64,000 nucleotides of DNA from Nitrososphaerota archaeon (GCA_038845265.1 JAWBQR010000006.1:56637-120636); one strand, 5' to 3'; numbered from the stretch's first letter, positions 8,186 through 44,413 are shown. The notes: generated by a model not told the origin, from the sequence alone. A program made the numbers and translations.

Positions 8186-8188
8186 AAA

Positions 8189-12558: not shown

Positions 12559-12617
12559 CCCACTTCATCTTAATAATAAAATTTATCAGGTACATTATAG
12601 AGTTTTAGCATCAAAAA

Positions 12618-13019: not shown

Positions 13020-13037
13020 TATGGTTATTAACAAATA

Positions 13038-14314: not shown

Positions 14315-14717
14315 CGTTACAGAATCAAGATACTTAATGATGCTAATGAGAAATATAGAGATAGGCACGCCTATTAGGACATCATTATTATCGCAGAAAG
14401 TAGGAGTAAAGCCGCCATCTGTTGTAGAAATTCTTAACCGATTAGAGAGTCATAGATTTGTAAGAAGGGTGAGGTGGGGAGAGACCGTTCTGACTCGTAA
14501 AGGAGAAAGGATCGCTAAGAATCTCCTACATAATCATAGAGTACTAGAGATTTATTTTGTGACCTTTTTAGGCATGAGTAAAGAGGTAGCCTGCAGAGAG
14601 GCATCAAGGATAGATCTTTACATAGGACAAAAAACAATTAATGCAATGTGTAAAACACTAAATCATCCATGCAAATGTTTTCACGGAAAAGAGGTGTATC
14701 ATGAAAATTGTATATGA
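14304..14717 (+). CDS. DtxR/MntR-family metal-dependent transcriptional repressor
   Basis: VKPPSVVEILNRL HTH; LTRKG; HRVLE; NHPCKCFHGK tail. Confidence 0.85.
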   Translation: MMPNVTESRYLMMLMRNIEIGTPIRTSLLSQKVGVKPPSVVEILNRLESHRFVRRVRWGETVLTRKGERIAKNLLHNHRVLEIYFVTFLGMSKEVACREASRIDLYIGQKTINAMCKTLNHPCKCFHGKEVYHENCI

Positions 14718-23374: not shown

Positions 23375-25687
23375 TTAAACTATTTCCAATAATTTAAGAA
23401 TGAATGCCTGACCAGCTGATATGCATCCGTCATTCGGGGGGAGTCTTTTACTCATTTTGAGGATTAAACCGGAGTTTTTTAAGGACGATTCAATTCCTTG
23501 AATAATGTACTCATTTACGGCTGCACCACCACTAACATAAACAACATTACTTCCATAATTAAGTGCTTCTTCTAGTGCTGCATTGCCAAGTAGTTTCCCA
23601 ATAATTAATTGTGCAGTGTACGCAATATCTTGACTTTTCGTATTATCTATCAGATCGACTAATTGACGAATTATCTCCGTCGAAGGAATGATTCCATCCT
23701 TGTAGTTAATTAGGTCTGAAGTTAATAGTTTAATTTCTCGCCCATTACTAGCATGTTCTTCAAGCAAAATTGCTGGTTCACCCTCATATGTACGCTCTTT
23801 ACATAATTGCAAAAGGACAGAAACGCTATCAAGTACTCGGCCGGTGCTAGACGTTAATTGTCCCCTTCCAGATTTAGCCAAAGATATACATTGTTGGAAC
23901 TCTTCGAAGCCGTGGGGAAAATAATGAATTAATCCTCTTCTCTCGAATAATCTTACGATTTCTTCTTCACTCAATATTTTGCTTAGAATTGATACAAGCA
24001 TTCTAGCCGGATATTTAGTAGCTAGGTCTCCTCCAGGCATAATTTGATACTCGAGATGAGCTTTTCTTTCAATTTTTTCAGAATCCCATGTAAGTATCTC
24101 GCCTCCCCAGATTGCTCCATCCTCGCCATATCCTGCACCATCAATCGTTATTGCTACAGCTGGTTCATCAATGTCGTGTAGATTATCAAGCATGGCTGAT
24201 GCCATATGCGCTTTATGATGCTGAACTTTGATTAGCTCCGATCCATATTTATTACTCCAATTTTCAGCAAGAAGAGAAGAACTATAAAGAGGATGTAAAT
24301 CAGAAACTATGATTGCGTCTTTTGGATTGATTTTGTAATAATTACATAACCTATAGAGATATTTCTCAAGGTCCTTATAACACTCGTATTCATCAACATC
24401 GCCGATATATTGTGTAGGAATTATTTTGTTGTCTATCGCTATCGCGCCCGTGCTCTGTAGATCTGAGCCGAATGCGATGACAGGTCTACTGAATCTTAGA
24501 TTAGTTTCTATCCATCTAGGCGCATACCCTCTCCCTCTTCTTAAGAATACTGCCTCGCCCCTAGTAAACCTAATGACTGAGTCATCAACTCTGTTTATTA
24601 TACGTCTATTATGTACTAGGAAATAGTCTGCCACACTTGTCAACTTCTTTAAATCCTCTTCACCAATTATCATGGGATGACCAGTAGGGTTTCCGCTTGT
24701 CATTATTGCAAATTTATCCTTAATATTCATCAATAAGAGATAATGAAGCCCCGTATATGGTATGAAAACTCCCAAGGTGTTTAGTCCTGGTGCTACTAAA
24801 GGAGAAACATTAGCATCAGCAGTCCTAGGCAGAATTAATATCGGTCTCTCATAACTCAGCAGTAATTTCTCAGCCTTATCATTTACCAAAACAAGTTTTT
24901 TTAAAATCTCAAGATTTAATGCCATTATAGCGAAAGGCTGTCTTGGACGATGCTTTCGGAGGCGTAGCTTTAAGACAACCTCGTCATCAGATGCTAGGCA
25001 TGCTAAATGGTAGCCTCCAATGCCTTTGACAGCCACGATGCATCCTTCATTTATCAGTTTGGCGGTTTCAAGAATAGGGTCTCTGACATTTAGCAATTTT
25101 AAATCGTTGTCAAGTAGATTTAGTCTCGGCCCACAATATGAACAGCTGATTCCCTCTCCGTGGAATCGTCTTATATCTGATACATTATTATATTCTTCAA
25201 TGCAGCTGGGACATAGCGGGAATTCTTTCCAACTAGTGTTATCTCTATCGTAGGGTATACTTTCAATGATAGAATACCTTGGACCGCACCATGCACATGA
25301 ATTAAACGCATATGCATATCTCCTATTTTCTTTGTCGAGGATCTCTTTTAGACACCACTCACAGATACTTATGTCTGGAGGAACTTCAGAAATGAGGAGG
25401 GAGTCTGAAGAACTTTTATGAATAGTAAATTCATTGAAGTTGTTTGGTTTCGCGTCATTAATTATTATTTTTTCTATCTTTGCTGTCGGAGTTATACCTT
25501 TTTCTATGGATTTGATGAAAAGTTCAACTTTTCTGTCTTCACCCTCTACCCAGATCTCGACTTCTCCTCCACCCAGGTTTTTTACATATCCATTTACTCC
25601 TACACTTAATGCGAGACGAGTGATGGCGGGTCTGAATCCTACACCCTGAACAACGCCAGTGACAGTTATTCTAACAGCCCTTAGCAT
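23375..25687 (-). CDS. hypF: Carbamoyltransferase HypF
   Basis: VQGVGFRP acylphosphatase domain; CxxC zinc fingers; KGIGGYHL, DLHP, QHHKAH, DGAGYGEDG, PPNDG. Confidence 0.95.
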   Translation of the reverse strand: MLRAVRITVTGVVQGVGFRPAITRLALSVGVNGYVKNLGGGEVEIWVEGEDRKVELFIKSIEKGITPTAKIEKIIINDAKPNNFNEFTIHKSSSDSLLISEVPPDISICEWCLKEILDKENRRYAYAFNSCAWCGPRYSIIESIPYDRDNTSWKEFPLCPSCIEEYNNVSDIRRFHGEGISCSYCGPRLNLLDNDLKLLNVRDPILETAKLINEGCIVAVKGIGGYHLACLASDDEVVLKLRLRKHRPRQPFAIMALNLEILKKLVLVNDKAEKLLLSYERPILILPRTADANVSPLVAPGLNTLGVFIPYTGLHYLLLMNIKDKFAIMTSGNPTGHPMIIGEEDLKKLTSVADYFLVHNRRIINRVDDSVIRFTRGEAVFLRRGRGYAPRWIETNLRFSRPVIAFGSDLQSTGAIAIDNKIIPTQYIGDVDEYECYKDLEKYLYRLCNYYKINPKDAIIVSDLHPLYSSSLLAENWSNKYGSELIKVQHHKAHMASAMLDNLHDIDEPAVAITIDGAGYGEDGAIWGGEILTWDSEKIERKAHLEYQIMPGGDLATKYPARMLVSILSKILSEEEIVRLFERRGLIHYFPHGFEEFQQCISLAKSGRGQLTSSTGRVLDSVSVLLQLCKERTYEGEPAILLEEHASNGREIKLLTSDLINYKDGIIPSTEIIRQLVDLIDNTKSQDIAYTAQLIIGKLLGNAALEEALNYGSNVVYVSGGAAVNEYIIQGIESSLKNSGLILKMSKRLPPNDGCISAGQAFILKLLEIV

Positions 25688-26736
25688 ATCCTTGGAACCG
25701 GATCACCAATAGGCGGAGGAATGATTCTTTTACCACCAATAGTTGTCTCTAAAATTACACCTTTAAATGAATCGGTAACGTATCCGATTATACTTGCTTG
25801 GCTCCAACCTGAATTCTTAATTGATTCAAGAATTTCTTCGGCCTTATCGTTTATGACACTCATTACAACCTTTCCTTCGTTTCCAACCTCAAGTATGTCG
25901 ATGCCTAACAATTCAGACGCTGCCTTAGCTGCTGAACTTATTGGTAATGCGTCTTCTCTAATGACGAATCCGAGCCCTGTATTTTCTGCCCACTCATTTA
26001 ACAATCCAGCAAGTCCTCCCCTTGTCGGGTCTTTTGCGCAAGTAACGCCGCCGACCTTCAATGCCTCTCTCATCAATTTATTTAGAGGGGCTACGTCTGA
26101 TTTTACGTCTGATTTAAAGCCCAATTCTCCACGCGCAGCAAGAATTGCTACTGCATGGTCGCCGAGGGGGCCATTCAAAATTATCTTATCTCCAGCCCTA
26201 ATGTTTTTAGTTATAAGCCACATCGAGGAATGGTCATCCCTACTTCTCTTAATTATTTCGTAGTTTTGCATTAATTCTTGGCCGGGTACCCCTATGCCGG
26301 AACAGTTAATCAAGAGTTTATCGACTCGGCCCTTCTCAACTACTTTTGTATCACCAGTAATTATTGAGGTTTCTGCCTCAAGAGCTGCCTCCCTCATGCT
26401 GTTTAAGATCTTTTCAATATTGGAAATCTCAAACCCCTCTTCGATTATTAAGCCGCAAGATACTCCAAGAATTTTTGTTGCTCCTTTAACTGCTAAGTCA
26501 TTAATTGTTCCGCACACAGCCATCCTACCGATATCGCCTCCTGGAAAGAATAGTGGATATACAGTGTACGAATCAGTTGTAAATGCTATACCGTTAACAA
26601 TTGCTGAATCTTCAAGGAGATAGAGAGGTACATCAATATTCCTGGATAAATCACCAAAATATTTTAAAACATACTTATGAATAAATTGCAGCATATATTT
26701 TCCGCCCGCGCCGTGAAGCATTGTAACATTATTCAT
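25681..26736 (-). CDS. hypE: Hydrogenase maturation protein HypE
   Basis: HGAGG, TTDSY, GDTKVV, DPTRGG; C-terminal PRIC. Confidence 0.95.
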   Translation of the reverse strand: MNNVTMLHGAGGKYMLQFIHKYVLKYFGDLSRNIDVPLYLLEDSAIVNGIAFTTDSYTVYPLFFPGGDIGRMAVCGTINDLAVKGATKILGVSCGLIIEEGFEISNIEKILNSMREAALEAETSIITGDTKVVEKGRVDKLLINCSGIGVPGQELMQNYEIIKRSRDDHSSMWLITKNIRAGDKIILNGPLGDHAVAILAARGELGFKSDVKSDVAPLNKLMREALKVGGVTCAKDPTRGGLAGLLNEWAENTGLGFVIREDALPISSAAKAASELLGIDILEVGNEGKVVMSVINDKAEEILESIKNSGWSQASIIGYVTDSFKGVILETTIGGKRIIPPPIGDPVPRIC

Positions 26737-26742
26737 TGTTGA

Positions 26743-27555
26743 TCACTTATTCTTGGGTTTAGAAATAAACTGTTCAAGCGCCTTAGCAAAACCTTCTGGA
26801 AGCTCGATGGACTCCGTTAAAGAGGTATCGGTACATACTCCGACAGTGTAAATATCAGCTGCTAGCTTATTAGAAGTTTTATTCCAGACAAAATTGCGGA
26901 ACTTCACATGTTTTCTACCTATTTCTTCAACCCAGACAATTACTTCGATCTCATTGTCCAACCGGACTGGAGAGAGTATTTTTCCCCCCGTCTCGACTGT
27001 CGGTATGAAACGGCCGAATTTATGTATCAGTGTTGAGTATCCAAACCCAACGCTTGCTAATAGCTCTTGTTGACACCGCTCACAGAACTTGAAATAATTA
27101 GTATAATGCATAACCTGTAAATAATCCGTGTCTGAAAGAGATATTTTATATGTCCTTTTGAAAGCATTGCTAGGAATTTCTAACTTATCTTTTGTATCAA
27201 CTTCATCATCTTCGTTTATATCTTTACCTACCCCCTCAATGTTTTGGGCATCGAGGCCAAGACTTGATAATAATTTTTTAAAATCCGCCATAGCTTTAGA
27301 ACTCGCTTCCTCAGGGCTAAGCCCCATTTCTCTATAGTTTATTTCTGCTAACTCGGAATACAGCGCCAAATTTGTCGCTACATCTTTAGGGTCCATTTTT
27401 CCAATTATAACTCCTGCGTGAACCATTACAAAATCATTTATATTTACATCGTCTATCGCCAATAGAGCTTCCCTGACTACGCCTCCAAAATCTATCTTGG
27501 CTATTTTATTTTCATTATCAATTTCTAAAACTTTACCAGGTGCTCCCCAACACAT
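26743..27555 (-). CDS. hypC: HypC chaperone fused via an acidic linker to a hot-dog acyl-CoA thioesterase (4HBT/YbgC-like) domain
   Basis: N-term MCWGAPGKV...DFGGV...VMVHAG (HypC Cys2 and His); C-term SDTDYLQVMHYTNYFKFCE, SPVRLDNEIEV, EIGRKHVKF; single 270-aa ORF. Confidence 0.85.
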   Translation of the reverse strand: MCWGAPGKVLEIDNENKIAKIDFGGVVREALLAIDDVNINDFVMVHAGVIIGKMDPKDVATNLALYSELAEINYREMGLSPEEASSKAMADFKKLLSSLGLDAQNIEGVGKDINEDDEVDTKDKLEIPSNAFKRTYKISLSDTDYLQVMHYTNYFKFCERCQQELLASVGFGYSTLIHKFGRFIPTVETGGKILSPVRLDNEIEVIVWVEEIGRKHVKFRNFVWNKTSNKLAADIYTVGVCTDTSLTESIELPEGFAKALEQFISKPKNK

Positions 27556-27558
27556 ATC

Positions 27559-28785
27559 TTATTCCCCTTTATTGATTAGTGAATTTTTAATGTCTCCATG
27601 TTTTGCCCATACATTACATGTCCCCTCAATCGATACCATGCATGGTCCCCACGGTGTCTCGGGCGTGCATGATTTCATAAATAGTGGACAATCTGTTGGT
27701 TTGGATATTCCGAGCACTACTTCCCCGCATCTACAGTTAGGAGGCAAATCGTACTTCCCGGGCTCTCCGAAATGCGCATGAGTCATAACATACTCAGAAG
27801 GTGAAGCGTCAGGTATACCAAAATACTCAAAGGCATCATAGATCTTCCTGAAATCTTCTCGAAACATTAATCCACTTCTCGCTATCATGCCAATCCCCCT
27901 CCAGGCGGCGTATGTGGGCTGAAAAACCTCATTCACCATTTTTTTTACATAAGAGTTACCATTAGGTTTAACTAACCTTTTGTACTCGATTTCTAGTCTT
28001 GGTTTTTGGTTATCAATCATTTTAAGAATTGTTGCGATCGCCATTAGTATATCTATTGGCTCAAATCCCGTAACAACGGTTGGGAGACCGAAGTTTTCAG
28101 GAAGAAATCGCCACTCATAACCGCCAATGACGGCCGAGACATGTCCAGGCGCTATGACCCCCATTATAGGGAGTAATCCTCTTTCCTTGTACAGCTTTAC
28201 AGTAAACTTCATCGCTGGCGGAGTGAGACGTACAAGACTCATGAACTTAAGGTTGGTTGGTACCTCTCCCTTATAAAAGAAGAAGCCGTAAATAGGTAAA
28301 ATTGTCTCAAAGCCTATTCCGAGAAATATGCTTTCCTTTTTATGTGTTTTTGCGTCTTTTATGGCGTCAAAAAATGAATAGACAACTTTGACTTCAGCGC
28401 CCAGGGACTTTGCTTCATAAAGAGATCTTGCTGGTGTTTTAGGCCTACTTGAAGGAAGCCTAAGTGCATCGCCATATGTATAAATAGTATATCCTTCAAG
28501 TGCAAGCTTAATAGACATATCTATGTAGTTTGACGGCACTACGCATACTGGGCAGCCTGGACCGGCTACAAGCTCTATGCTTCGTGGCAATAAGCTCCTC
28601 AATCCATAATGCGTTATAGCCCATTCATGCGTACCGCAGAAATGCATTATCTTAATTAATGAATTATTTTCGAATTGTTTTTTCATGATTTTCTCTGCAT
28701 ATTTTTTGATTATTCCAATTAATGATGAAGCAAGTTCACGGTTGCTTCGAAATATATCCTGAACAGTTCTCAGCTCTGGTTGCAA
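27559..28785 (-). CDS. hypD: Hydrogenase maturation protein HypD
   Basis: CGTHE, GPGCPVC, GFET, PGHVS, CRCGEV...CPLF...GPCMVSIEGTC. Confidence 0.95.
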   Translation of the reverse strand: MQPELRTVQDIFRSNRELASSLIGIIKKYAEKIMKKQFENNSLIKIMHFCGTHEWAITHYGLRSLLPRSIELVAGPGCPVCVVPSNYIDMSIKLALEGYTIYTYGDALRLPSSRPKTPARSLYEAKSLGAEVKVVYSFFDAIKDAKTHKKESIFLGIGFETILPIYGFFFYKGEVPTNLKFMSLVRLTPPAMKFTVKLYKERGLLPIMGVIAPGHVSAVIGGYEWRFLPENFGLPTVVTGFEPIDILMAIATILKMIDNQKPRLEIEYKRLVKPNGNSYVKKMVNEVFQPTYAAWRGIGMIARSGLMFREDFRKIYDAFEYFGIPDASPSEYVMTHAHFGEPGKYDLPPNCRCGEVVLGISKPTDCPLFMKSCTPETPWGPCMVSIEGTCNVWAKHGDIKNSLINKGE

Positions 28786-29261
28786 TTAATATGGTCACCT
28801 CTTCTAGTAATTTTCATAATGATGTCAAAAACATTCTTTGTAATTGAATCCAATTTTTCGGAAATTTCTAGTGAAATATTATCTCCAATTGTATATGGAT
28901 CTTTTGTTTCAATTGCAATTATATGTATAAAGTTAGGACGAAGTAATTCTAGTGCATGGATAGCCATCAAGGCTTCAGGAAGTCCTGCATAATGAGGTGA
29001 AAACACAGACATGGATTTCATTAAATCCCCATCCAGTTCGTATACGTGTCCTACTGGATGTTTGTTGCTTCTTATACCATCAACTATTATGACCATGTCG
29101 TAGCCGTGAATGTAATCTAGTAATGAGAGTCCTGTTTTTTCTAAGATATGCGTATCAATACCCATTTTTTCTAGTTCTCCCATCAGACGTTTCCCTACTT
29201 CTATTCCTACGGCATCATCCCTGTAAATAGGATTACCGAGGAATAGAACGACTACTTTCAC
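28770..29261 (-). CDS. Hydrogenase maturation endopeptidase (HycI/HybD family)
   Basis: GNPIYRDDAVG, IIVDG and SPH motifs; directly downstream of the large subunit. Confidence 0.9.
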   Translation of the reverse strand: MKVVVLFLGNPIYRDDAVGIEVGKRLMGELEKMGIDTHILEKTGLSLLDYIHGYDMVIIVDGIRSNKHPVGHVYELDGDLMKSMSVFSPHYAGLPEALMAIHALELLRPNFIHIIAIETKDPYTIGDNISLEISEKLDSITKNVFDIIMKITRRGDHINCNQS

Positions 29262-29267: not shown

Positions 29268-30728
29268 TTATAAATTATGCCGAACTACATTAAGTAGTTT
29301 GCCATTCATGTCATAAATGTATACAGCTAGTGGCATATTCCCCGGCAGTGAATGAGTTCCACACGCATGGCATGGGTCATAGGCCCTAAACGCCATCTCT
29401 ATCATGTTTAATATACCTTCATTTATCTGGCCTTGTCTGATCAATTGTTTTGCTGCCTTATCAATTGATAAGGCAATTCTTGCAGCATTGTTTTGTGTAG
29501 CGACTATGAGATTAGCCTGTTTAACTACTCCACGTTCATCAGTTATGTAGTGATGTATTAATGTGCCTCGAGGCGCCTCAACGACTCCCATACCTTCACT
29601 TGGTTGATCTTTAGGAATATTTCTTATATTTTGATCAGTTATATCAGGATCATTTGCTAATTCCTGAATTCTTTCTGCTGCATAAATCATCTCTATCACC
29701 CTTGCCCAGTGGTTTGCGAGAGTGTGATGAACAGGTCTACCAATCATCGAAATCATTTCCTCAAATGCTGATTGTGCCTCATGTGTAGGTAATGATTGAG
29801 AAACATTAAGTCTCGCAAGGGGTGCTACACTATATATCCCGCTATCTTCTCCATCAATGAATCCTTTCCAACCTATTTTCTTTAGGAAAGTGAATTTAAT
29901 ATATGTCCATGGCTCAACATGTTCTCCAACATATTCTAAGTACTGATGTACATCAAATTTAGCAAATTCATTACCCTTTGGGTCGACTACTCTTATTTTT
30001 CCATCATAGAAGTTGAGCTGGTTCTTCTCATCAACTAAACCCATATAATAGGTTCTATGTGTATATGCATCGCTAGTTATAAGATTGAAGTATTGGTCAT
30101 TACTTAATACTAGAGTTTTAAACAGCTTCATGGTAAATTTTGCAAATTCTACAGACTCTTCTGCTACTTGTTTTATTTTTTCTAACTCATTATTTTTTAT
30201 TGGTCTTGAGACTCCGCCAGGCACTCCTGATACTGGATGGATTGTTTTACCACCCAGCATTAGATTTATTTCTCTAAGTTTTTTACGAATTGATATAACT
30301 CTTAGCACATTTTCTTTACCAACCTTGTTAATTACTCCCAGTATGTTTCTTTCTTCTTTAGGTGAAGTCGGTCCAACTATGAAATCTGGTCCTCCTAATA
30401 TATAGACGTGGAGAGCGTGGTCTTCAAGCATGAATATGTTATACATAAGTTCTCTAATCTTTCTGGCAGTCAGTGTTGGAGGGCAATTATAGAGGTCATC
30501 AAGCGTTTTCGTAGAAGCCATGTGATGCGCCATAGGGCAGACACCGCATATCCTAGCAGTGATTTGCGGCATGTCCTCGACTGCCCTTCCCTCGGCAAAT
30601 TTTTCAAATCCCCTGAGTTCTGGTATTTGGATGTATGCTCGGTCCACGTTTCCAACATCATTTATAAATATGATTATCTTCCCATGTCCTTCAAGCCTAG
30701 TTATTGGGTCAATTACTATTTCTCTCAC
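29268..30728 (-). CDS. mvhA: [NiFe]-hydrogenase large subunit, group 3c (MvhA-like)
   Basis: TRLEGHG; RGFEKF; L1 RICGVC; L2 EMAFRAYDPCHACGTH followed by a cleavable C-terminal tail. Confidence 0.92.
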   Translation of the reverse strand: MREIVIDPITRLEGHGKIIIFINDVGNVDRAYIQIPELRGFEKFAEGRAVEDMPQITARICGVCPMAHHMASTKTLDDLYNCPPTLTARKIRELMYNIFMLEDHALHVYILGGPDFIVGPTSPKEERNILGVINKVGKENVLRVISIRKKLREINLMLGGKTIHPVSGVPGGVSRPIKNNELEKIKQVAEESVEFAKFTMKLFKTLVLSNDQYFNLITSDAYTHRTYYMGLVDEKNQLNFYDGKIRVVDPKGNEFAKFDVHQYLEYVGEHVEPWTYIKFTFLKKIGWKGFIDGEDSGIYSVAPLARLNVSQSLPTHEAQSAFEEMISMIGRPVHHTLANHWARVIEMIYAAERIQELANDPDITDQNIRNIPKDQPSEGMGVVEAPRGTLIHHYITDERGVVKQANLIVATQNNAARIALSIDKAAKQLIRQGQINEGILNMIEMAFRAYDPCHACGTHSLPGNMPLAVYIYDMNGKLLNVVRHNL

Positions 30729-31711
30729 TTTCTCACACTCCTGAGAATATTTCTTAAGCCTGATTTTGGAAGCGAGTATTTGTAAATTAAACCTAAAATG
30801 TCCGGGAGCTTTGAGATTTCTTTTCTTATTTGTTCTTCATCTTCGAGATCTAGTATACTGCCAAGGAAGGATATCGCCTTTCCTCCATAATCATGAATAT
30901 TGTCAAGTGGTCCGAAGCAGCCTGTGCAGGGCATGTTAGCTTTAATGCAGAGCGCACTGCATCCTCCTCTCGTCACAGGACCTAAGCAGGGCAATCCTTG
31001 AACTAGGAGACACTGATTTGGGTCAGGCACGAAGTGGACTACTCGTTTAAATTCTTTAATTAATACATTCTCTGGCTTTGTATCATTAAGCGGACATTCA
31101 TTGCATAACGATTTGTTGCTGGCTCCTATCACTGAGCCCTTGCTGGGAAGCTTTCCTGATAATAATATATTGATCGCTTCCCAAGTAACTTCAGGTGTTG
31201 GTGGACATCCAGGCACGTAATAATCTACGGTAATAACCTCGTCAAGAGGCTTGAGGCTAGGTAAAAATTCTGGTAAATCAATTTTAGCACCATTGATTTC
31301 TACAGGGCGAGTCTGGGAAGGTATTATTTTCTCAGGATTAACAGTAGTGGGCGTAGTTATATAGGCCCTTTCAAGTATCTCCTCTCGTCTATAATTGTTT
31401 GCTAGTCCAGGAATTCCTCCCCAACATGCACATGCTCCATATGCCACGACGAACATAGATTTTCTCCTCAGCAATTTTACTATCTTCTCATGTTCGGATA
31501 AACGAACACCGCCATTAATGAAGCTCACAGTTATTGAATCATCTGGCATAGCCTCTATGTCCGGGATCTTGAAGTCCATGGCGACAGGCCAAAACACGAT
31601 ATCGACAAGATTAACCACATCTAAAATTTTCTCACCTAAGTCTACTACTGCTTCTTCGCATCCACCACAGCTTGCGCACCAATAAAATGCAACTTTTGGA
31701 CGTATACTCAT
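30725..31711 (-). CDS. mvhG: [NiFe]-hydrogenase small subunit (MvhG-like)
   Basis: [45 protein letters not shown]. Confidence 0.92.
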
Positions 31712-32145
31712 ACGGCTTCGACCTCTAATTTGACTGGGCCTAATCTTTTCAGATCTCTAACCATTTCATTTACTACTTGTACCCACTTATTTGCTTCCGA
31801 TGCTGATATCCATTCAAGTCTGAATCGCTCCTTTTCGATTCCTAATTCCTCTAACAATCTTCGGAATAAGCTATAACGTCTAAGTGCCTTTATGTTTCCA
31901 CTAATGTAGTGACAATCAGAAGGTGGATGGCAACCGGCTACGATTACACCATCAGCACCCTGCTCAAATGCCGCGAGGACGAATTGTGGATCAATACGTC
32001 CAGAACACATGACTCTGATAACTCTCACATTTGGCGGATACTGCATCCTACTAGTTCCGGCTAGGTCAACAGCAGCATAGGTACACCAATTACAGGCGAA
32101 TACAACAATTTTAGGCTCGTAGTCATTAGAGCTCATTTTAGTCAC
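31708..32145 (-). CDS. mvhD: [2Fe-2S] adaptor subunit MvhD
   Basis: [27 protein letters not shown] and WISASE motifs. Confidence 0.95.
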
Positions 32146-34078
32146 CTTTTATTAATGCCAAAACTTGAGCTAGTACCTGTCTGTCCTTAAAGCTATACTG
32201 CTGCATCGCTCCTGATGGACATGCTGCAGAACAAGTACCGCAACCCATGCATAATGCTCTCTCGACGTAGGCAATCATTCTTCCATTAATTTCTTTGAGT
32301 GAAATAGCCTTATATGGACATAAGCCCACGCAGATCCTACAACCACTACACAATTCATCATTTACGGTGGCTACAAATGGTTCAGTCTTGACTTTTCCTT
32401 TTGATAAGAGAGCAGCCGCCTTAGAAGCAGCGGCACTTCCAGTTCTAATACTCTCAATAATGTTTTTTGGCCCAGTAACTGACCCTGCTAGAAAGATGCC
32501 TTGGGTAGGAGCTTCTACTGGATTAAGCTTGAGATGCGCTTCTCTGAGAAATCCATCTGTGCCACAACTAGCTCTGGTAACTGCAAGTAGGTCTATAAGA
32601 TCCCTTCTCGGAATCATACCTACCGATAAAACGATTAAATCTACCGGTATGCTTATTTCTTCCTGAATAGTGACTTCATATACGTCAATTAAAATTCCTT
32701 CAGGGCCAATGTCCACTACTGGGGGTTCCTCAAATTTGATGAACTTAATGAGATGCTCTCCGGCCCTCTCATAAAGACTTTCATCATTTCCATAAGTATT
32801 GATGTCTTGGTAAAGAATAAACACATCTGTTTCAGGATACTTTTCTTTTATTTTGATCGCATTTATCAATGTAGATGTGCAGCACATCCTTGAACAATAA
32901 CTCTTAGAATTGGGCGTTGTATTACGCGAGCCTACGCATAATATAAAAGCGATTCTTTTAGGTATCGTTCCTCCTATTATTAATTTTCCCTGAGTTGGGC
33001 CGTCTTTATCTAAAAGTCTCTCTAGCTGGAATAGCGTAATTACATTATTATGAAGACCATATGCATATTCGCCCTTTGGTGGAATGTATGGATCATATCC
33101 AGTAGCTATGATGAGTGCTCCAACATTTAAATCCAACAATTTAGGTTGCTCAGATAAATCGATTGCATTAAACCTACATGCTTTTACGCACTCGCCACAC
33201 TTGATGCAGACTCTTTGATCTATAACATACATGAGTGGATAGGCTGTCTTAAATGGATAATAGATGGCTTTTCTTCTTGATAATCCATATTGATACTCAT
33301 CTGACAATTCGATTGGGCACTCAACTTCACATTCTCCGCACAAAATGCATTTTTCATTTATATACCGCGGATTTATTCTGATTTTTGCTTTAAAGTTGCC
33401 TGGAAAACCACCAAACTCGATTAGTTCAGAATTTGTGAATACGTGGATCTTTCTATTCTCTGCAATTTTGTTAATTAAATTATTTACTACATCGGCACCT
33501 CTTCTATCACTTTCAAGCCATCCGGTTAGGGCGGCTCTCCCCCCAAGCGTGGGGCTTTTCTCAACTAAATAAACTTCAAATCCATATTCCGCAAGGTCAA
33601 TTGCAGCCCTCATTCCAGCGACGCCACCGCCAAGCACCAAAACGGCGGGATATGTCTGAAACTCTGTCTCTTCCAATGGTTCTAGGAGAGCGGCCTTGGC
33701 AACAGCCATCCTAATTAAGTCCATAGCCTTCTTAGTGGCTGCTTCTCTATCAGAATGAGCCCATGAGCAATGCTCCCTGATATTTGCCATTTCTAATAAG
33801 TACTTATTCAGTCCTGCACTTTCTATGGCGGACCGGAATGTAGGTTCATGCATTGAGGGTGAGCAAGCAGCAACTACAACTCTATTCAAATTATGCTTCT
33901 TTATCTCTTCCTTTATCAATTCTTGGCCTACAGTTGAGCACATAAACACATAGTCGTGACTCACTATAACATTCGGAAGTTTCTTTGCATATTCACTGAC
34001 TGTTTTAACATCTACTTTTGAGGCTATGTTATGTCCACAATGACAGATAAATACTCCAACCCTAGGCTCAATACTCAT
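32138..34078 (-). CDS. hdrA: HdrA-family flavoprotein, 646 aa (N-terminal Cys domain, FAD domain, inserted and C-terminal ferredoxins)
   Basis: [31 protein letters not shown]...YCSRMCC, four CxxCxxCxxxC motifs. Confidence 0.9.
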
Positions 34079-35436
34079 GATTTATCACCTTTTATGGTAA
34101 TTATCTTTTCAATCATATGCCTCTTTGCAATTGTAGAGGCCTTTATCGCGGCTGAACTAGCCATCGTTACAGAGTCTGGAATGTCCCTTGCTTCAGCTGC
34201 GCCCCCAATGACAAAAATTCCCTCCATAGAAGTTGAGACAGTGTCAAGATAGGGATCCATAAGCTGTATAAATCCTCCTTTATCTGTCTTCAGTGGTATG
34301 GAAGAAATTTTATTAGGCCTAACTGCAACTGATAGAACCACCATATCAAATTCTTCTTTCTTCATGTAGCTATGCAGGGTATCCTCATAGAATAATATTA
34401 AATTCTTATTGTGCGGGTTCTCAATGATCTTGACTACTTTACCTCTGACATATTTTACTCCATACTCCGTCATGGCTCTTTTGAAGAATTCATAGAATCC
34501 CTTACCAAATGCCCTCATATCCATAAAATAAATCGTAGTATCCACGTCTGGAATGTGTTCTTTTGCTAGAATCGCTTGCTTCGTAGCGGCCATGCAGCAA
34601 AACGCAGAACAGTAATGATTGAATCTTATATCTCTTGAACCAACGCATTGAATCCAAGCTATCTTTTTTGGATGCTTTCCATCTGACCTTCTAATTAACT
34701 CTCCATTTGTTGGTCCTGTTGATGATACTAATCTCTCAAACTCTAGATGAGTGTAAACATTCTGATATTTACCGTAACCATACTCAGGAATGTTACGTGC
34801 ATCATATAGGTCTAGACCAGTAGCGACTATTATCGCTGCGACATTAATCTCAATGATTTCTGACTGTTGATTATAGTCAATAGCCTTTGTTGGGCAAACC
34901 TTCTCACATGCACCACATAACGGCTTTCCTTTTGCTTTTTCTTTAAGGTCAGGAGGTGGGTTTAGTCTCAGACATTGTGTAGGATCAATCAGTGCTTTTC
35001 GCGGGACTGCCTGAGGATATTCAATGTATATTGCCTTTCTTTGGCTGAGATTTGCGTTATACAGATCTGAGACTTTAACCGGGCATCGCTCGATACATGT
35101 CCCGCATCCTGTACATTTATTCCAATCAACATATCTTGGCTTCTTTAAAATCCTAACTGTAAAATCCCCTATCTTTCCTTTTACTTCCTGCACCTCTGAA
35201 TACGTCAGAAGCTTTACATTACTATATCTCAGAAGCGCTGCCATCTTTGGAGTCAATATGCATGACGCACAGTCAAGTGTTGGAAACGTCTTGTCAAGTT
35301 GTGCCATCTTTCCACCAATACTCGGATTCTTTTCTACTAGATAGACTTCAACTCCGTGTTCGGCGAGGTCAAGACTGGCCTGAATTCCCGCAATACCGCC
35401 ACCTATTACGAGTACTGGTTTACTCAAGTATCTCAC
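34075..35436 (-). CDS. hdrA: Short HdrA-family flavoprotein, 453 aa (QmoA-like size; lacks N-terminal and C-terminal ferredoxin domains)
   Basis: Starts at VIGGGIAG; LDKTFPTLDCASC; inserted ferredoxin; CVGSR...YCSAFCCMAATK. Confidence 0.88.
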   Translation of the reverse strand: MRYLSKPVLVIGGGIAGIQASLDLAEHGVEVYLVEKNPSIGGKMAQLDKTFPTLDCASCILTPKMAALLRYSNVKLLTYSEVQEVKGKIGDFTVRILKKPRYVDWNKCTGCGTCIERCPVKVSDLYNANLSQRKAIYIEYPQAVPRKALIDPTQCLRLNPPPDLKEKAKGKPLCGACEKVCPTKAIDYNQQSEIIEINVAAIIVATGLDLYDARNIPEYGYGKYQNVYTHLEFERLVSSTGPTNGELIRRSDGKHPKKIAWIQCVGSRDIRFNHYCSAFCCMAATKQAILAKEHIPDVDTTIYFMDMRAFGKGFYEFFKRAMTEYGVKYVRGKVVKIIENPHNKNLILFYEDTLHSYMKKEEFDMVVLSVAVRPNKISSIPLKTDKGGFIQLMDPYLDTVSTSMEGIFVIGGAAEARDIPDSVTMASSAAIKASTIAKRHMIEKIITIKGDKS

Positions 35437-36550
35437 CTCTTATGAACCCTTTTCTCGCGCTTACGTAATTAGCGATTGACTTGTATAACCAGTGGTTATG
35501 TTTGCCGAACGGTACCTCGAGTAAAAGGAAGGGAAAGACGACACCAATATGTAAGACATAAATTACATAAGACATGAAATAAACATTTAGATCGTTAAAG
35601 ATATTCATGAGTAGGCCTGTTAAGCCTATTACGAAGACATACCCTAAACTAATCCAATCAGTGGAGTGTCTAAACATCTTATAATACCAATGAATCTTTG
35701 GAGAATTACTAAGACGCTTAACAAATGGTAAGCCTGCACCGACTACGAGTAGCAGAGCAGCTACGTATCTACTCGCCATAATCACGTATGCGAATGGATA
35801 GATAGAGTAAATTGCGGGATAGATCAAGTAGATAAGGACTAGCAATATGTATAGAATTATCCCTGCTAGTATGAACATATGTTCAAGAATCCTTATTCTT
35901 TTATCGGAAATTTTTAATGCGTCATTCTCACTCTTTATCCAAAATCTTAATACTCTCTTAAATGATTCGAAGAAACTGATGACATAATCTTTGCCGCCAC
36001 CCACAAATTTGTACATTCTATATCCATTGCTTGCTAATAATCCAAGGCTAAGCACTGTTAAAAGTATTCCTATTGGTAGTATTTCAGGCAAGTTTACAAA
36101 AACGTTTTTTGATAAATAATTCATTATTGAGGAATAGAATATCGATAATAATCCAACGATAGAGATCATTGATAGAATAAAAGTGACCAAGAGTTTTTTC
36201 TTTAATGAGGAGAAGTACCACCACTTTGATATTCCTGTCCAGTCGTAAAGCGTGCTTTGGTATCTTCTTAATGATGCTAGTATCTCACATGGATTAGCAT
36301 CTCGTGGACATGCTTCAATACAGTCTCCGTGAACATTACACAGCCAAGGCACTAGGTCTTTCTGAAGCTTATCCACAAATCCCAGTTGCGCATACTTAAT
36401 TACTCTTCTAAAACTAATAAACATGCCTTCAGCTATAGCACAGGTTGCAGTGCAGGAACCACATTGATAGCATTTGAAGATGCCTTTGCCTCCTAGTTCT
36501 ATTATTTCCTTGTTGATATCTTTAAAAGATATATAAGGAGTTGCCTTCAT
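35420..36550 (-). CDS. QmoC-like protein (HdrC-type ferredoxin fused to NarI/HdrE-like membrane domain), paralogue 2
   Basis: CYQCGSCTATC, CNVHGDCIEACP, LRRY..YDWTGIS; ~6 TM segments with His; PFGKHNH. Confidence 0.8.
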   Translation of the reverse strand: MKATPYISFKDINKEIIELGGKGIFKCYQCGSCTATCAIAEGMFISFRRVIKYAQLGFVDKLQKDLVPWLCNVHGDCIEACPRDANPCEILASLRRYQSTLYDWTGISKWWYFSSLKKKLLVTFILSMISIVGLLSIFYSSIMNYLSKNVFVNLPEILPIGILLTVLSLGLLASNGYRMYKFVGGGKDYVISFFESFKRVLRFWIKSENDALKISDKRIRILEHMFILAGIILYILLVLIYLIYPAIYSIYPFAYVIMASRYVAALLLVVGAGLPFVKRLSNSPKIHWYYKMFRHSTDWISLGYVFVIGLTGLLMNIFNDLNVYFMSYVIYVLHIGVVFPFLLLEVPFGKHNHWLYKSIANYVSARKGFIRGEILE

Positions 36551-37713
36551 ATTTTTGTCACTTCAGTTATTTTGGATTGACGAATTTCGTTAATTTTAGA
36601 GAAATATAAAGCGATGGGGCGGTAGGCAATATGTGCCCACTTCGTGAACGGTACACCTAATATGAGAAATGGCACAACGACCATTAGATGGAGTGAGAAA
36701 ACTACGTATGTACCTATTGGCCATCCAATACTTCTAAATATGCCTGTTAACAATCCTGTAATGGATATCAGTACTAATAGAATGATGAACATCCAATCAG
36801 TTGGATGTGAATATTTCCAGAGTGGTTTATTCTTTTTAATGCGCCCGCTAATTACTGTAAGTCCTCCATAGGCAATTGTAAAGACCGAAAATAGTCCAAT
36901 TATGCTAAGGGGTGAAACGAATAAAAATGGATCATTTGTATGCGTAAACACCAAAAGCAGTTCGAACAGTACTAGAGAGGCTACATAGCCATAAAATATT
37001 AATAAATGAACTAACCAGTATTTTCTATCATTGCAATAGCTGAATAGCTTCTGTGTAAGGAAATTAGGAATAAGCGTCTTAAAGAATTCTCTAACATAAA
37101 TCAACAAAGGCAGTTTTACTTTAAGGTTTGAAGTTAGTCGATACATCCGGTAAATATTTATGAGAAGTATTGATGCGAGAACCGCAAAAATGAGCCGTCC
37201 AGCATTTTCCACGATTTCTATTGGAGCAAAGACAGCTAAAGCCACCTGATCTAGTATTATCGGTCCATGAAACAGGTAAATAATAATGCCTGTTAAAATT
37301 GATAATGATAAGATTGCAAAGAGCAATATCTTATTGTTAAGATATAGTAGTTTTGAGATTCCGGTCCAGTCATAAACCATGGTTAGATATCTTCTAAGCG
37401 TCATCATAAGCTCGCTTGGATTTGCATCACGTGGACAAGAATTACTGCACTCTCCGCAGGCATAACATAACCATGGTGTCAGGTCGCTTGATATTTTTTT
37501 ATCTAGTCCAAGCTGAGCATATTTAATCGATCTTCTAAAACTAATTAAGTAATCCTCAGATATTGGACAAATCGCAGTACATGACCCGCATTGATAGCAC
37601 TTCATAATTCCATCGCCGCCTAATCTAATTATTACGTCGGTAATCTTTTCTTCTTTTTGAATCGGCATTAATAGTGTTGCCACAGGCTGCCTTATTCCCA
37701 TGCTACTATTCAA
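36547..37713 (-). CDS. QmoC-like protein (HdrC-type ferredoxin fused to NarI/HdrE-like membrane domain), paralogue 1
   Basis: CYQCGSCTAICP, CYACGECSNSCP, LRRY..YDWTGIS; TM His (LVHLLIFYG, LHLMVV, PFTKWAH). Confidence 0.85.
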   Translation of the reverse strand: MNSSMGIRQPVATLLMPIQKEEKITDVIIRLGGDGIMKCYQCGSCTAICPISEDYLISFRRSIKYAQLGLDKKISSDLTPWLCYACGECSNSCPRDANPSELMMTLRRYLTMVYDWTGISKLLYLNNKILLFAILSLSILTGIIIYLFHGPIILDQVALAVFAPIEIVENAGRLIFAVLASILLINIYRMYRLTSNLKVKLPLLIYVREFFKTLIPNFLTQKLFSYCNDRKYWLVHLLIFYGYVASLVLFELLLVFTHTNDPFLFVSPLSIIGLFSVFTIAYGGLTVISGRIKKNKPLWKYSHPTDWMFIILLVLISITGLLTGIFRSIGWPIGTYVVFSLHLMVVVPFLILGVPFTKWAHIAYRPIALYFSKINEIRQSKITEVTKI

Positions 37714-37841: not shown

Positions 37842-38252
37842 TTGATGCATGAATTCACCGTAGCAATGGGGATTGTAGATTCATTAAAAGAATTATATTT
37901 AAACAAGGGTTTCAAGATTAATAGTTTCAAGATAGTTATCGGTGAATTATCGATGTTTAATCCAAGCATAATTAATGATCTTGTTAGAGAATTAATTAAG
38001 GAAACAGAATTAGAAAACACTAAATTTAAAGTAATTATTGAGGAAGCAAAAATCAAATGTGAATCATGCAATGAAACTCACAGCTTTAATGAACTCTCAA
38101 AACAGTTAAGTGAGGAAGAAAAAGAGATGATTCATTTTATTCCTGAATTAATTTCATCATATATGAAGTGTCCATCATGTAGTAGTAGAGATCTAAAGAT
38201 TATGAGTGGGAGGGGAGTAAAGGTGATTGACATTGCGTTGCAAAAACGATAA
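37842..38252 (+). CDS. hypA: Nickel metallochaperone HypA (long, Thermococcales-like insertion)
   Basis: MHE N-terminus; CESC and CPSC separated by EKEMIHFIPEL; SGRGV. Confidence 0.92.
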   Translation: MMHEFTVAMGIVDSLKELYLNKGFKINSFKIVIGELSMFNPSIINDLVRELIKETELENTKFKVIIEEAKIKCESCNETHSFNELSKQLSEEEKEMIHFIPELISSYMKCPSCSSRDLKIMSGRGVKVIDIALQKR

Positions 38253-39012
38253 GGAAATAATAGATTATAGAGAATCCCTAATAAGAAAAAGGCTTAGCAA
38301 GATATCGTCTTCAATTTTTATCGGTAGTGGTAAGGGTGGAGTCGGTAAAAGCCTAATAGCAGCGACGATGGGATTAATACTAAGCTCTGAGGGTTTCAAA
38401 ACTGGACTTTTAGACCTAGATATGCACGGCCCTTCATCATCTGCAATTCTTAATATTAATGAGCTACCACGCGAAGAAAAAGAAGGGTTAAAGCCACCAA
38501 CAATATGTGGATTAAAGGTCATGTCTGTAGGCTTGTTTGTAAAGGATTCGCCATTACCATTAGGCGGCCAAGCAAAAAGAGAAATCTTAAAAGAATTACT
38601 AGCGATTACAGACTTCGCCACTCTTGACTATTTAATAGTAGATCTTCCCCCTGGAACAGGTGATGAGTCATTGGCAGCAATCAATTTTATTACTAATAAT
38701 AGAGGAGTAATTCTAGTCTCTACACCCTCACTATTGTCACTCGAGGTCGTGAGACGAACTGCTTACTTCTTTATCGATATGAAGATCAAAATACTGGGAT
38801 TAATAGAGAATATGGTTAGAGAGGATAAGTTTGGTTACACTTATAAACTTGCACAAGAATTAGGAGCGCCCTTTTTGGGATACGTCCCATTCGACGAAAA
38901 GGTAATGTTTATCTATGAAAAATTAGAACCTAAATCATTGATAAATACGAAATTTTCCGAGGCACTAAAAAACGTATTAATAAACGCAAAAATTCTCAGA
39001 CATTATCACTAA
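38227..39012 (+). CDS. Mrp/MinD-family ATPase, probable ATPase-type HypB
   Basis: SGKGGVGKS, DLDMHGPS, VDLPPGTGD; ENM not followed by CxxC; overlaps hypA. Confidence 0.8.
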   Translation: MTLRCKNDKEIIDYRESLIRKRLSKISSSIFIGSGKGGVGKSLIAATMGLILSSEGFKTGLLDLDMHGPSSSAILNINELPREEKEGLKPPTICGLKVMSVGLFVKDSPLPLGGQAKREILKELLAITDFATLDYLIVDLPPGTGDESLAAINFITNNRGVILVSTPSLLSLEVVRRTAYFFIDMKIKILGLIENMVREDKFGYTYKLAQELGAPFLGYVPFDEKVMFIYEKLEPKSLINTKFSEALKNVLINAKILRHYH

Positions 39013-42877: not shown

Positions 42878-44413
42878 TCAAATGTGGGTTAATTTATTTT
42901 TAATGGTTCTCTTCAACTTTATCAACTTTAGGATATAGTGTGAAAACAAAGCAGTTTGAAATGCTGATATAATAATTAGTGCCATAGTTGTTGATGTCAA
43001 TGTTTTAATTATCAACTGAACATTATCCTTCTTAGATATGTCAATGATTGAGGAGGCGTAACCGATACTAGTGACTGCGCTGAAATTATAGATGGCGATG
43101 GGCATCCTTATTCTCGCGCTACCGTTGATAATCGAATGTTTTGAAGAGTTTACAAGTATTAATGCATTTTTTATTAGTGTCCCGTCAACATGTTTCACGG
43201 TTATCTCAATTTCTTTACTTTCAATAATTATCGTATTCAAGTCTTCTTTCTTAAGTGTAATGTTTTTTATCATGTTAGAGATGTCAACTGAATATACCTC
43301 GATTTTTGAATTTATAATAGCGTAGTTATTGTGAGTGTCGTTTAATAATTGTAGTCTGGTTGGAACTATATAAGTTATGTGATCGGATTTAAGTGATAGC
43401 ATTTCTAATACGTCAAAACTATAATCATCAATATTTTTTGAAAGGGCTTTATCATATACAATTAGCCTATAAACCGGTACCTTAACGTTTATCACGTCAA
43501 TTCTACCCGTTGATACATTATAATAGGCTATCTTAATGTTGTCATTAATCAATTCAGTTAATTCTACATCAATAGTCCTAGTGATTGACTGTAAATTAAC
43601 TTCTTCTGGAATGATTAATAATTCATCTACGTAATTGAGAATTGTCGACCCTGTGCCCGTACAAACAACTTTCAGCCTAATTGGTCCTACCCTAAGTGGA
43701 ATTATGCCGCCACTTCCAACCTTTCCTACTTCGGGAATTTCGAAATTTATGACTATCGGTTCAGCTATGGGCTTGCTAAATCTGTTGGTATATTCTGAAA
43801 CAACTGCATCAGTCTTATAATGGTATTGGACATCCCCTATTAATCCAGAGAGCTCTATTGGTTCATTGTATTCGAGAGTTATTCTTACGTGGGTAGTTCC
43901 TGATGGAATTGTTATATGCAAGTTTTTTGATGGATTCATTATTTTAGTGACGTTTTTACTCTTGGCTAGGAATCCTATGAAAGCTGAACCTTCTAGTGAC
44001 AATCTTAGCACATCATCACTAATTTTCTGAATCGATATATAATGGTCCTTAGGAGAGTAATTGTCGATTACTTTAAGAGACATTGTTCCTAGTTTAGAGT
44101 GTCTAAGTAGCCATGTACCAACATCGCTTGCATTAAATGTCAGTACTTTCATTTTCTTTCCCTCCTCTAAGAAGTATTCATATCTTCTGTATATTGGGTC
44201 TATAATTGTGATGTTAGCAGAGCTACCGATAGTTTTTAATTCTAGTTCTTCACCAACAAAGAATGTTAATTCAGCTCCGTCTATAAACGGAAGCATTCTA
44301 TCCCCACCATATCCTATTAGAAGAGCATCAACTCTCAGAGAATCTATAGGGTAAAGTCCATTCGTTAAAAATAGTGAAAGCAATAGTATCGAGGCGAGTA
44401 ATCCTTTTTTCAT
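42878..44413 (-). CDS. Hypothetical exported, membrane-anchored beta-rich protein
   Basis: Signal-like MKKGLLASILLLSLFL; C-terminal TM helix and basic tail; last gene of the MoxR operon. Confidence 0.65.
   Translation of the reverse strand: MKKGLLASILLLSLFLTNGLYPIDSLRVDALLIGYGGDRMLPFIDGAELTFFVGEELELKTIGSSANITIIDPIYRRYEYFLEEGKKMKVLTFNASDVGTWLLRHSKLGTMSLKVIDNYSPKDHYISIQKISDDVLRLSLEGSAFIGFLAKSKNVTKIMNPSKNLHITIPSGTTHVRITLEYNEPIELSGLIGDVQYHYKTDAVVSEYTNRFSKPIAEPIVINFEIPEVGKVGSGGIIPLRVGPIRLKVVCTGTGSTILNYVDELLIIPEEVNLQSITRTIDVELTELINDNIKIAYYNVSTGRIDVINVKVPVYRLIVYDKALSKNIDDYSFDVLEMLSLKSDHITYIVPTRLQLLNDTHNNYAIINSKIEVYSVDISNMIKNITLKKEDLNTIIIESKEIEITVKHVDGTLIKNALILVNSSKHSIINGSARIRMPIAIYNFSAVTSIGYASSIIDISKKDNVQLIIKTLTSTTMALIIISAFQTALFSHYILKLIKLKRTIKNKLTHI

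Follow-up and report, generated by a model that had tools for sequence, protein, structure and literature searches.

Gene clusters related to the one described here have been reported from archaeal genomes. A Mvh-Qmo-Hdr cluster was found in Ca. Methanoglobus nevadensis, and an electron flow among H2, ferredoxin, and menaquinone was speculated for it (Buessecker et al. 2022, preprint, 10.1101/2022.12.01.518715). The corresponding cluster of Ca. M. hypatiae was highly expressed in culture (995 to 2431 reads per kilobase per million mapped reads), and bifurcation of electrons from H2 to menaquinone and ferredoxin by what was named the Mvh-Qmo-Hdr complex was hypothesized (Lynes et al. 2024, PMC10945360). 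In an Aigarchaeota bin, moreover, a copy of hdr located in a cluster with mvh was interpreted as encoding an HdrABC that reduces DsrC (Hua et al. 2018). Here we describe a cluster of this kind, consisting of genes for two QmoC-type membrane anchors, a short and a full-length HdrA (HdrAs and HdrAl), and the hydrogenase proteins MvhD, MvhG, and MvhA, at positions 29268 to 37713 of a 64,000-nucleotide stretch of DNA (hereafter, the window) from a Nitrososphaerota archaeon (GCA_038845265.1, JAWBQR010000006.1:56637-120636).

The cluster in the window resembles that of Ca. Methanoglobus: both have MvhA/G/D, a pair of HdrA homologues, and a cytochrome b fusion of HdrC and QmoC, and both lack HdrB. 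The function that can be proposed, reduction of menaquinone and ferredoxin with H2, is also the same, and is a hypothesis in those papers too. We consider it fairly probable that the operon encodes a membrane-bound H2:quinone/ferredoxin bifurcating complex. This reading builds on the gene content and conservation of a tight operon whose cofactor motifs are intact, in a genome in which HdrB, Apr, Dsr, and Mcr were not found. An earlier interpretation, made by a model from the DNA alone (the sequence-only reading), had put forward such a complex as a mode of hydrogen metabolism atypical of characterised group 3c enzymes; the complex is the best-supported reading of the gene content, but the idea is not new, because the cluster design and the bifurcation hypothesis had already been published for Ca. 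Methanoglobus. The cluster of the window stands out by its two distinct anchor types in tandem, one of them with an invariant His residue, in an oxidase-bearing, non-methanogenic archaeon. Unlike Ca. Methanoglobus, the host is non-methanogenic and has a haem-copper oxidase and a group 4 hydrogenase. In the literature searched, in which most subscription journals were not covered, neither a second anchor type nor the His substitution was mentioned, and the Bacteroidota version of the cluster presented below was not described; a paper on Culexarchaeia did not refer to Qmo.

The MvhAGD-HdrABC complex of hydrogenotrophic methanogens (Protein Data Bank (PDB) entries 5ODC, 8RVU, and 9SW2) shares MvhA, MvhG, MvhD, and a full-length HdrA with the window, each matching end to end, together with an HdrC-like domain. 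Unlike that complex, the window lacks HdrB or any CCG domain in the operon, its HdrC is fused to a membrane cytochrome b, an extra truncated HdrA is present, and quinone takes the place of a heterodisulfide as the predicted acceptor. QmoABC of sulfate reducers (Ramos et al. 2012, PMC3333476) likewise combines a QmoA-like short HdrA and a QmoB-like long HdrA with a QmoC-type fusion. On the other hand, a hydrogenase is attached in the window, the host genome is without aprBA, to which QmoABC is linked genetically and functionally, and MvhD is a separate gene and not the C-terminus of QmoB. EtfABCX (PMC10734219, PMC13083937) is similar in being a bifurcating flavoenzyme that reduces ferredoxin with menaquinone as the high-potential acceptor, and in structure comparisons the membrane domains of QmoC1 and QmoC2 both matched that of EtfD (PDB 9OJN) best. 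However, the donor of EtfABCX and EtfD is reduced nicotinamide adenine dinucleotide or electron transfer flavoprotein (ETF), not H2, and the flavoprotein family and the other subunits differ; the analogy is one of logic only.

Organization and expression of the operon

Genes were assigned by matching the open reading frames (ORFs) of the window to Pfam and NCBIfam profiles. Seven co-oriented minus-strand ORFs were found, running from 37713 to 29268 in the following order.

36547 to 37713, minus strand: QmoC1-type anchor, 388 amino acids (aa) as called, full-length alignment to NF038018
35420 to 36550, minus strand: QmoC2-type anchor, 376 aa, full-length alignment to NF038018
34075 to 35436, minus strand: short HdrA (HdrAs, QmoA-like), 453 aa, HdrA2 model positions 139 to 566
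32138 to 34078, minus strand: full-length HdrA (HdrAl), 646 aa, HdrA2 model 711 bits
31708 to 32145, minus strand: MvhD, [2Fe-2S] connector subunit, 145 aa, PF02662 187.5 bits, VhuD model 145 bits
30725 to 31711, minus strand: MvhG, [NiFe]-hydrogenase small subunit, 328 aa with 14 Cys, VhuG model 212 bits
29268 to 30728, minus strand: MvhA, [NiFe]-hydrogenase large subunit, 486 aa, VhuA model 377 bits

Adjacent genes overlap by 4, 17, 4, 8, 4, and 4 nucleotides (nt), in this order. The seven co-oriented, overlapping genes of the sequence-only reading thus coincided exactly with ORFs, and their identities were borne out by the Pfam and NCBIfam matches. The end assigned to the cluster was too early, however, since the cluster continues beyond MvhA as far as position 23375, with genes for a maturation protease, hypD, a hypC-thioesterase fusion, hypE, and hypF, and comprises 12 genes in total. 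The seven-gene order is not due to chance, because the same order occurs in all three genomes of the genus and in an unrelated metagenome-assembled genome (MAG), L004.

In two RNA-Seq libraries from one study, short contigs with 0 to 1 mismatches covered parts of QmoC1, the HdrAs, and MvhG; one example was a contig of 506 nt at 34899 to 35401 with a depth of 20.9. These contigs lend weak support to transcription of the operon, because carry-over of DNA into RNA libraries is possible, and none to co-transcription of its genes. In the approximately 3% of raw-read run X5 that was covered, no read fell on the stretch, which is too little to count as a test; the word shares of 0.09 to 0.19 in RNA runs carry no information on habitat.

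Hydrogenase and HdrA subunits

MvhA retains both NiFe-binding motifs, the N-terminal RxCGxCxxxH as RICGVCPMAH (residue 59) and the C-terminal DPCxxCxxH as DPCHACGTH (residue 451), and the active site contains Cys, not selenocysteine. A 27-residue tail follows the C-terminal motif, and the protease gene lies 6 nt downstream. The nearest PDB chains of MvhA were tied, namely 7t2r_D (bifurcating NiFe-HydL, 367.5 bits) and 5odc_F (MvhA, 362.9 bits), and its best NCBIfam match, to the VhuA model at 377 bits, was below the cut-off of 800 bits. MvhG, on the other hand, matched 5odc_E over its full length with 225 bits, as against 110 bits for the next type (7t2r_E). Because the best relatives of MvhA are tied, the assignment to group 3c rests on MvhG, MvhD, and the gene context.

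HdrAl has every HdrA domain, including both ferredoxin-like domains, contains 26 Cys residues, and lacks a fused MvhD domain. It aligned with HdrA of MvhAGD-HdrABC (5odc_A) over residues 4 to 642 versus 3 to 649 (642.8 bits). HdrAs matched the HdrA2 model with 526 bits (positions 139 to 566) and PDB chain 8rvu_a with 427 bits (residues 7 to 446 versus 153 to 583). It consists of a flavin adenine dinucleotide/thioredoxin-reductase-like core with an inserted ferredoxin domain and lacks the N-terminal and C-terminal HdrA domains. HdrAs and HdrAl are only 35% identical, which indicates that they are old paralogues.

Two types of QmoC anchor

QmoC1 and QmoC2 share 36% identity over 373 aa (blastp) and matched the qmoC model NF038018 with 183 bits (model positions 8 to 360 of 360) and 143 bits (full length), respectively. 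In both proteins, an HdrC-like domain is followed by a NarI-type multi-helix membrane domain, predicted to be a cytochrome b. The HdrC-like domain of QmoC1 was recognized by PDB HdrC chains (49 to 53 bits, residues 22 to 110), and that of QmoC2 by NCBIfam HdrC models.

QmoC1 carries two standard CxxCxxCxxxCP motifs (4Cys, [4Fe-4S]). In the second cluster motif of QmoC2, C-N-V-H-G-D-C, His occupies the second Cys position. This substitution was present in all four QmoC2 proteins of tandem operons and in all six of the Archaeoglobi loci described below, and the residue (H74) was invariant in 13 of 13 aligned QmoC2-type proteins; Cys was retained at that position in all 20 Mvh-linked QmoC1-type proteins examined. 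The Cys-to-His change would be expected to alter the properties of one QmoC2 cluster. Among 26 QmoC1-type sequences, H236, H303, and H342 were invariant and H361 was nearly invariant; these residues are candidate ligands for two haems b. In the 13-protein alignment of the QmoC2 type, H287 and H351 were additionally invariant, and the counterpart of QmoC1 H342 was lost in three.

The AlphaFold2 (AF2) model of QmoC1 (predicted local distance difference test (pLDDT) score 82.8) was aligned by VIA-align with HdrC (Z 11.3, root-mean-square deviation (rmsd) 2.0, 90 residues aligned), with M. smegmatis EtfD (Z 10.6, rmsd 4.3, 221 aligned), and with E. coli NarI (Z 10.2, rmsd 5.3, 179 aligned). The AF2 model of QmoC2 (pLDDT 76.4) matched EtfD with Z 9.7 and NarI with Z 9.4, and its first unrelated match had Z 6.8. 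When the PDB was searched with the QmoC1 model by Foldseek, no match reached E <= 0.001, and HdrC chains and EtfD appeared only as weak rows. The fold evidence for the predicted membrane domains is supportive, not decisive.

In a quick maximum-likelihood tree of 34 sequences, the 13 QmoC2-type rows formed one clade with a Shimodaira-Hasegawa-like approximate likelihood ratio test value of 100. A long branch linked this clade to the archaeal Mvh-linked QmoC1-type proteins, and the same placement was obtained in a quick tree of 89 rows. In both trees, the QmoC proteins of the window fell in clades apart from classical QmoC. One reading is that the QmoC2 type is a diverged duplicate of the archaeal Mvh-linked anchor; with arbitrary roots and so long a branch, this is no more than a reading. 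When a QmoC2 profile was run against 1.84 billion cluster representatives, one full-length match at 673 bits, which was to the cluster of the window itself, and a fragment at 291 bits were obtained, after which the scores fell to 244 bits or less; by this measure, the QmoC2 type is rare. Judged from the alignments and trees, the two anchors are two distinct, conserved QmoC types.

Distribution of the cluster

QmoC-like genes are very common: a survey of QmoC-like loci gave at least 600 pattern matches, and at least 584 were confirmed. The best 80 loci were kept; locus counts from these are minima, and several loci end at contig boundaries. Among the best 80, L004 (a MAG labelled Thermoprotei archaeon) had the identical seven-gene order with both anchors, and L005 had one QmoC1-type anchor followed by HdrAs-HdrAl-MvhDGA. 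Eight Bacteroidota loci (L026, L030, L034, L037, L043, L047, L051, and L057) showed the order HdrAs-QmoC-HdrAl-MvhD-MvhG-MvhA, in which the anchor lies between the HdrA genes; in the 89-row tree, their QmoC proteins formed a clade separate from archaeal QmoC. In one Eubacteriales locus (L059), mvhAGD was divergent from qmoC. Most of the remaining loci of the best 80 resembled QmoABC without a hydrogenase. L072 (a Ca. Methanoperedens MAG) had a Qmo-like module in which the HdrA-MvhD pair is duplicated, in the order QmoC-HdrAs-HdrAl-MvhD-HdrAl-MvhD; hydrogenase subunits were lacking within 10 kb of it.

In the window's own GTDB class, 76 genomes were scanned. The tandem QmoC pair was present in all three genomes of the genus and in none of the 16 other genomes of the family, and seven genomes of another family of the same class had one full-length QmoC each. 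Eight loci were fetched from the class: two were tandem operons of the genus, and six had a single QmoC1-type anchor with HdrAs-HdrAl-MvhD-MvhG. MvhA was present in four of these six; in L116 it was lost to the contig end, and in L111 no match passed the 30%-coverage filter. L111 (G053:C1:39000-58999) has MvhG but no MvhA match, with approximately 4.8 kb available upstream of position 4797, and its large-subunit gene may be split, broken, or selenocysteine-interrupted.

Among 96 Archaeoglobi genomes, a QmoC2-type gene was found in eight (562 to 605 bits). All six fetched loci had the order QmoC2-type-HdrAs-HdrAl-MvhD-MvhG-MvhA-protease with a single anchor. These six loci, which are not equated with the published MAGs, share the gene order of the window, with identities of 43 to 48% for QmoC2, 68 to 71% for HdrAs, 66 to 68% for HdrAl, 76 to 78% for MvhD, 60 to 63% for MvhG, and 65 to 69% for MvhA. 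In contrast to the Archaeoglobi loci, which have the His-type anchor only, the window adds an upstream 4Cys QmoC1-type anchor. Apart from this genus, the only genomes seen with both anchors in tandem were two MAGs labelled Thermoprotei: L004, and another in which P0026 and P0129 come from contigs of equal length (601,286 bp).

The HdrAs-HdrAl-MvhD-MvhG-MvhA core was always beside a QmoC-type gene in the three genus genomes, six class genomes, the six Archaeoglobi loci, L004, and L005, which suggests that the same core can work with either anchor type alone. The qmoC-hdrA-mvh synteny noticed in the sequence-only reading was therefore recovered in the genus, the class, and Archaeoglobi, and in a variant order in Bacteroidota.

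Host genome

The host is a hot-spring, non-methanogenic, Caldarchaeales-like archaeon with a genome of 1.37 Mb that is 93.27% complete. The lack of aprAB and mcr noted in the window extended to the whole genome: at this completeness, no match was found for aprA, mcrA, or NIR_SIR sulfite reductase. A molybdopterin oxidoreductase was also not matched in the genome. As for HdrB, none with two CCG domains was found in the operon, and a genome-wide search for an alternative partner revealed no stand-alone HdrB and, at E <= 1e-10, no stand-alone HdrC-like protein. The earlier statement that the window has no CCG-domain HdrB is correct with regard to HdrB; a protein with two CCG domains is nevertheless encoded in the window. 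CCG domains (PF02754) were confined to two long fusion proteins in the genome. One is this EtfD-like protein (5891 to 7903, 670 aa), composed of a NarI-type cytochrome b, a 4Fe-4S dicluster, and two CCG domains. It is encoded in a minus-strand group at 3347 to 7903 together with etfA, etfB, and a small MTHFS-like ORF, and its domains and neighbours mark it as an archaeal membrane ETF:quinone oxidoreductase of the mycobacterial EtfD type. The other, a LutB-like protein with a LUD domain, adjoins a LUD-domain gene. As candidates for the missing HdrB, both were rejected, one being EtfD-like beside etfBA and the other LutB-like.

A second match to PF00374 was found in a group 4 hydrogenase cluster.

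L084 (C8) 6413 to 14750: group 4 [NiFe]-hydrogenase cluster, a HycI-like protease gene followed by NuoB-, C-, D-, H-, I-, K-, L-, and M-like genes

NCBIfam names the large subunit NuoD, below the cut-off. The possibility that this second hydrogenase is a mere NuoD was rejected on the basis of both intact NiFe Cys motifs and its own HycI-like protease.

Quinone-linked enzymes in the genome were the EtfD-like protein, a sulfide:quinone oxidoreductase (SQR)-like protein (372 bits, below the cut-off), a MenA-like prenyltransferase, and a haem-copper oxidase. The SQR-like, MenA-like, and EtfD-like proteins are indirect indications of a quinone pool in the host. The single haem-copper oxidase subunit I (C2:155965-157425, 216 bits) is of a divergent type and has a CoxB-like neighbour. 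The oxidase of the genus scores approximately 205 to 221 bits to PF00115 and is of a type also found in most genomes of genus g13 that bear the operon; in most of the remaining genera of the class, the types score 430 to 526 bits.

Proposed electron flow and alternatives

In the H2:quinone/ferredoxin bifurcating complex, for which assembly, haem binding, quinone as the acceptor, bifurcation, direction, and stoichiometry are all presumed, H2 would be oxidized in the cytoplasm at MvhA, and the electrons would pass through the clusters of MvhG and the [2Fe-2S] cluster of MvhD to the flavin of HdrAl. From there, the high-potential electron would travel through the HdrC-like iron-sulfur domain of QmoC to haems b and then to membrane quinone, and the low-potential electron would go to ferredoxin. 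Overall, this would be flavin-based bifurcation in which quinone replaces the heterodisulfide CoM-S-S-CoB and a QmoC-type cytochrome b replaces HdrBC. HdrAs may stand in for the second HdrA protomer. In the HdrA dimer of 5ODC, each protomer carries one HdrC. By analogy, an HdrAs-HdrAl heterodimer would offer two HdrC docking sites, which would account for the pair of anchors in the window and, in other lineages, for a single anchor type present in two copies. On the simplest view, the two QmoC paralogues (4Cys and His) would be two specialized outlets, one per flavoprotein.

The potential of H2 is approximately -414 mV. Values of approximately -450 mV for ferredoxin and -74 mV for menaquinone have been reported (PMC10734219). 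The energetics of electron transfer from H2 to quinone and ferredoxin are favourable. If the proposal is true, quinone joins heterodisulfide as a high-potential acceptor for H2-driven bifurcation, and the formation of low-potential ferredoxin from H2 along with a respiratory feed would be explained in non-methanogenic archaea and, by synteny, in many Bacteroidota. The same core with a 4Cys anchor, a His anchor, or both would then be a natural experiment on the role of the anchor and of an unusual cluster.

Several results weigh against this proposal. Both QmoC proteins are under the NF038018 equivalog cut-off of 300 bits, and the NarI and EtfD fold scores (Z 9.4 to 10.6) are in the range where helical bundles may match by arrangement alone. 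QmoC2 had no contig in the two RNA libraries, where gaps prove nothing. The ORF and family scan revealed no ferredoxin or polyferredoxin gene in the operon. Quinone biosynthesis, which the sequence-only reading had named as a point to check, could not be shown in the genome: the MenA-like prenyltransferase was below the cut-offs (224 versus 239 bits, and 91 versus 102 bits for TIGR00751), MqnA/D of the futalosine pathway was absent, and matches to MenB (125 bits versus a cut-off of 342.7) and MenD (67 versus 244) were below cut-off in all three genus genomes. Thus, the genome has no recognizable menaquinone head-group pathway, futalosine or classical. In addition, within the searched literature (most subscription journals not covered), genome-based proposals were found but no biochemical study of this cluster type.

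A more elaborate form of the proposal places both QmoC proteins in one complex, one per unlike HdrA, with the His-ligated cluster of QmoC2 tuning one outlet to give two differently poised quinone routes. Together with the haem-copper oxidase, this could form a "Knallgas" route that makes reduced ferredoxin directly from H2, and together with the group 4 hydrogenase an internal H2 cycle could amount to an energy-conserving ferredoxin:quinone oxidoreductase. Taken as a whole, this form is tentative and rather unlikely to hold in every part.

It is a serious possibility, though one we hold to be somewhat improbable, that QmoC1 and QmoC2 are not parts of one complex but alternative anchors that define two isoforms for different quinones, potentials, or directions. 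Each type is the sole anchor of the same core elsewhere, QmoC1-type in six class loci and L005 and QmoC2-type in the six Archaeoglobi loci, and the conserved Cys-to-His change should alter one cluster. For the same reason, the candidate heterodimeric anchor put forward in the sequence-only reading cannot be obligatory for this complex type. However, qmoC1 and qmoC2 overlap by 4 nt in one operon, the pair is kept in the three genus genomes and in L004, which fits co-assembly, and, by analogy with the 5ODC dimer, the two different HdrA proteins would offer two docking sites for HdrC-like domains.

With regard to the direction of electron flow, modules of the group 3c and HdrA kinds can in principle work either way. 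The same complex run in reverse would confurcate electrons from quinol and reduced ferredoxin to H2, and would dispose of electrons that ETF/EtfD or SQR feed into the quinone pool when a terminal acceptor is lacking. Quinone-reducing inputs are encoded (the EtfD-like gene beside etfBA and the SQR-like gene), and terminal reductases are few, with no molybdopterin oxidoreductase and one divergent haem-copper oxidase. Nevertheless, we regard this direction as quite unlikely, given that it would run uphill except at a very low partial pressure of H2, that the group 4 hydrogenase is already suited to ferredoxin-driven H2 evolution, and that the homologous cluster was published as one for H2 uptake.

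The lack of a ferredoxin or polyferredoxin gene in the operon would also be in keeping with a non-bifurcating H2:quinone oxidoreductase, in which the two HdrA proteins would only act as wires or would reduce another soluble acceptor, such as NAD(P)+ or a thiol carrier, with no ferredoxin involved. The closest membrane-bound relative, QmoABC, is not known to bifurcate. This alternative has a small chance of being correct: HdrAl retains the complete architecture of the bifurcating enzyme, with the two ferredoxin-like domains in place, and seven subunits with two flavoproteins would be costly in comparison with the three-subunit group 1 hydrogenases. Finally, although two CCG-domain proteins are present in the genome, it is very improbable that one of them is the true high-potential partner and that the QmoC proteins serve another pathway, since the EtfD-like fusion sits 21 kb off in its own cluster beside etfBA, the other protein is LutB-like beside a LUD-domain gene, neither is an HdrB, and the association of QmoC with the core is maintained in different phyla.

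Flanking genes and other features of the window

The features on either side of the seven genes were as follows.

28770 to 29261, minus strand: hydrogenase maturation endopeptidase, TIGR00072 75.7 bits, above the cut-off
23375 to 28785, minus strand: hypD, hypC-thioesterase fusion, hypE, and hypF; HypD 350, HypE 345, and HypF 761 bits
37714 to 37841, no strand: divergent intergenic spacer, 128 bp, AT-rich, read from the sequence
37842 to 39012, plus strand, divergent: hypA (HypA NF003008 118 bits) and a Mrp/NUBPL-type P-loop ATPase (PF10609 182 bits)

The Mrp/NUBPL-type ATPase in the 37842 to 39012 region is presumably a candidate substitute for HypB. Within the hyp cluster, HypC is fused to a hot-dog thioesterase domain (26743 to 27555, minus strand). 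The true start of QmoC1 is probably the ATG at 37701 (384 aa), four codons past the called TTG, because the database copy P0003 (384 aa) begins there. A TATA-like sequence, tatatata, is located approximately 27 nt upstream of this ATG on the minus strand, and the 128-bp spacer with this element is a candidate promoter.

Two further regions of the window were recorded. A translational GTPase of 525 aa with an N-terminal extension of approximately 110 residues is encoded at 52139 to 53716 on the plus strand; its scores for EF-1alpha (182 bits) and SelB (153 bits) both fall short of the cut-offs. The minus-strand genes at 42878 to 47404 encode a MoxR-type AAA ATPase (PF07726), a DUF58-like protein, and ORFs of 242 and 511 aa without a family match, and this group looks like a MoxR/DUF58 (von Willebrand factor A-type) chaperone cluster.

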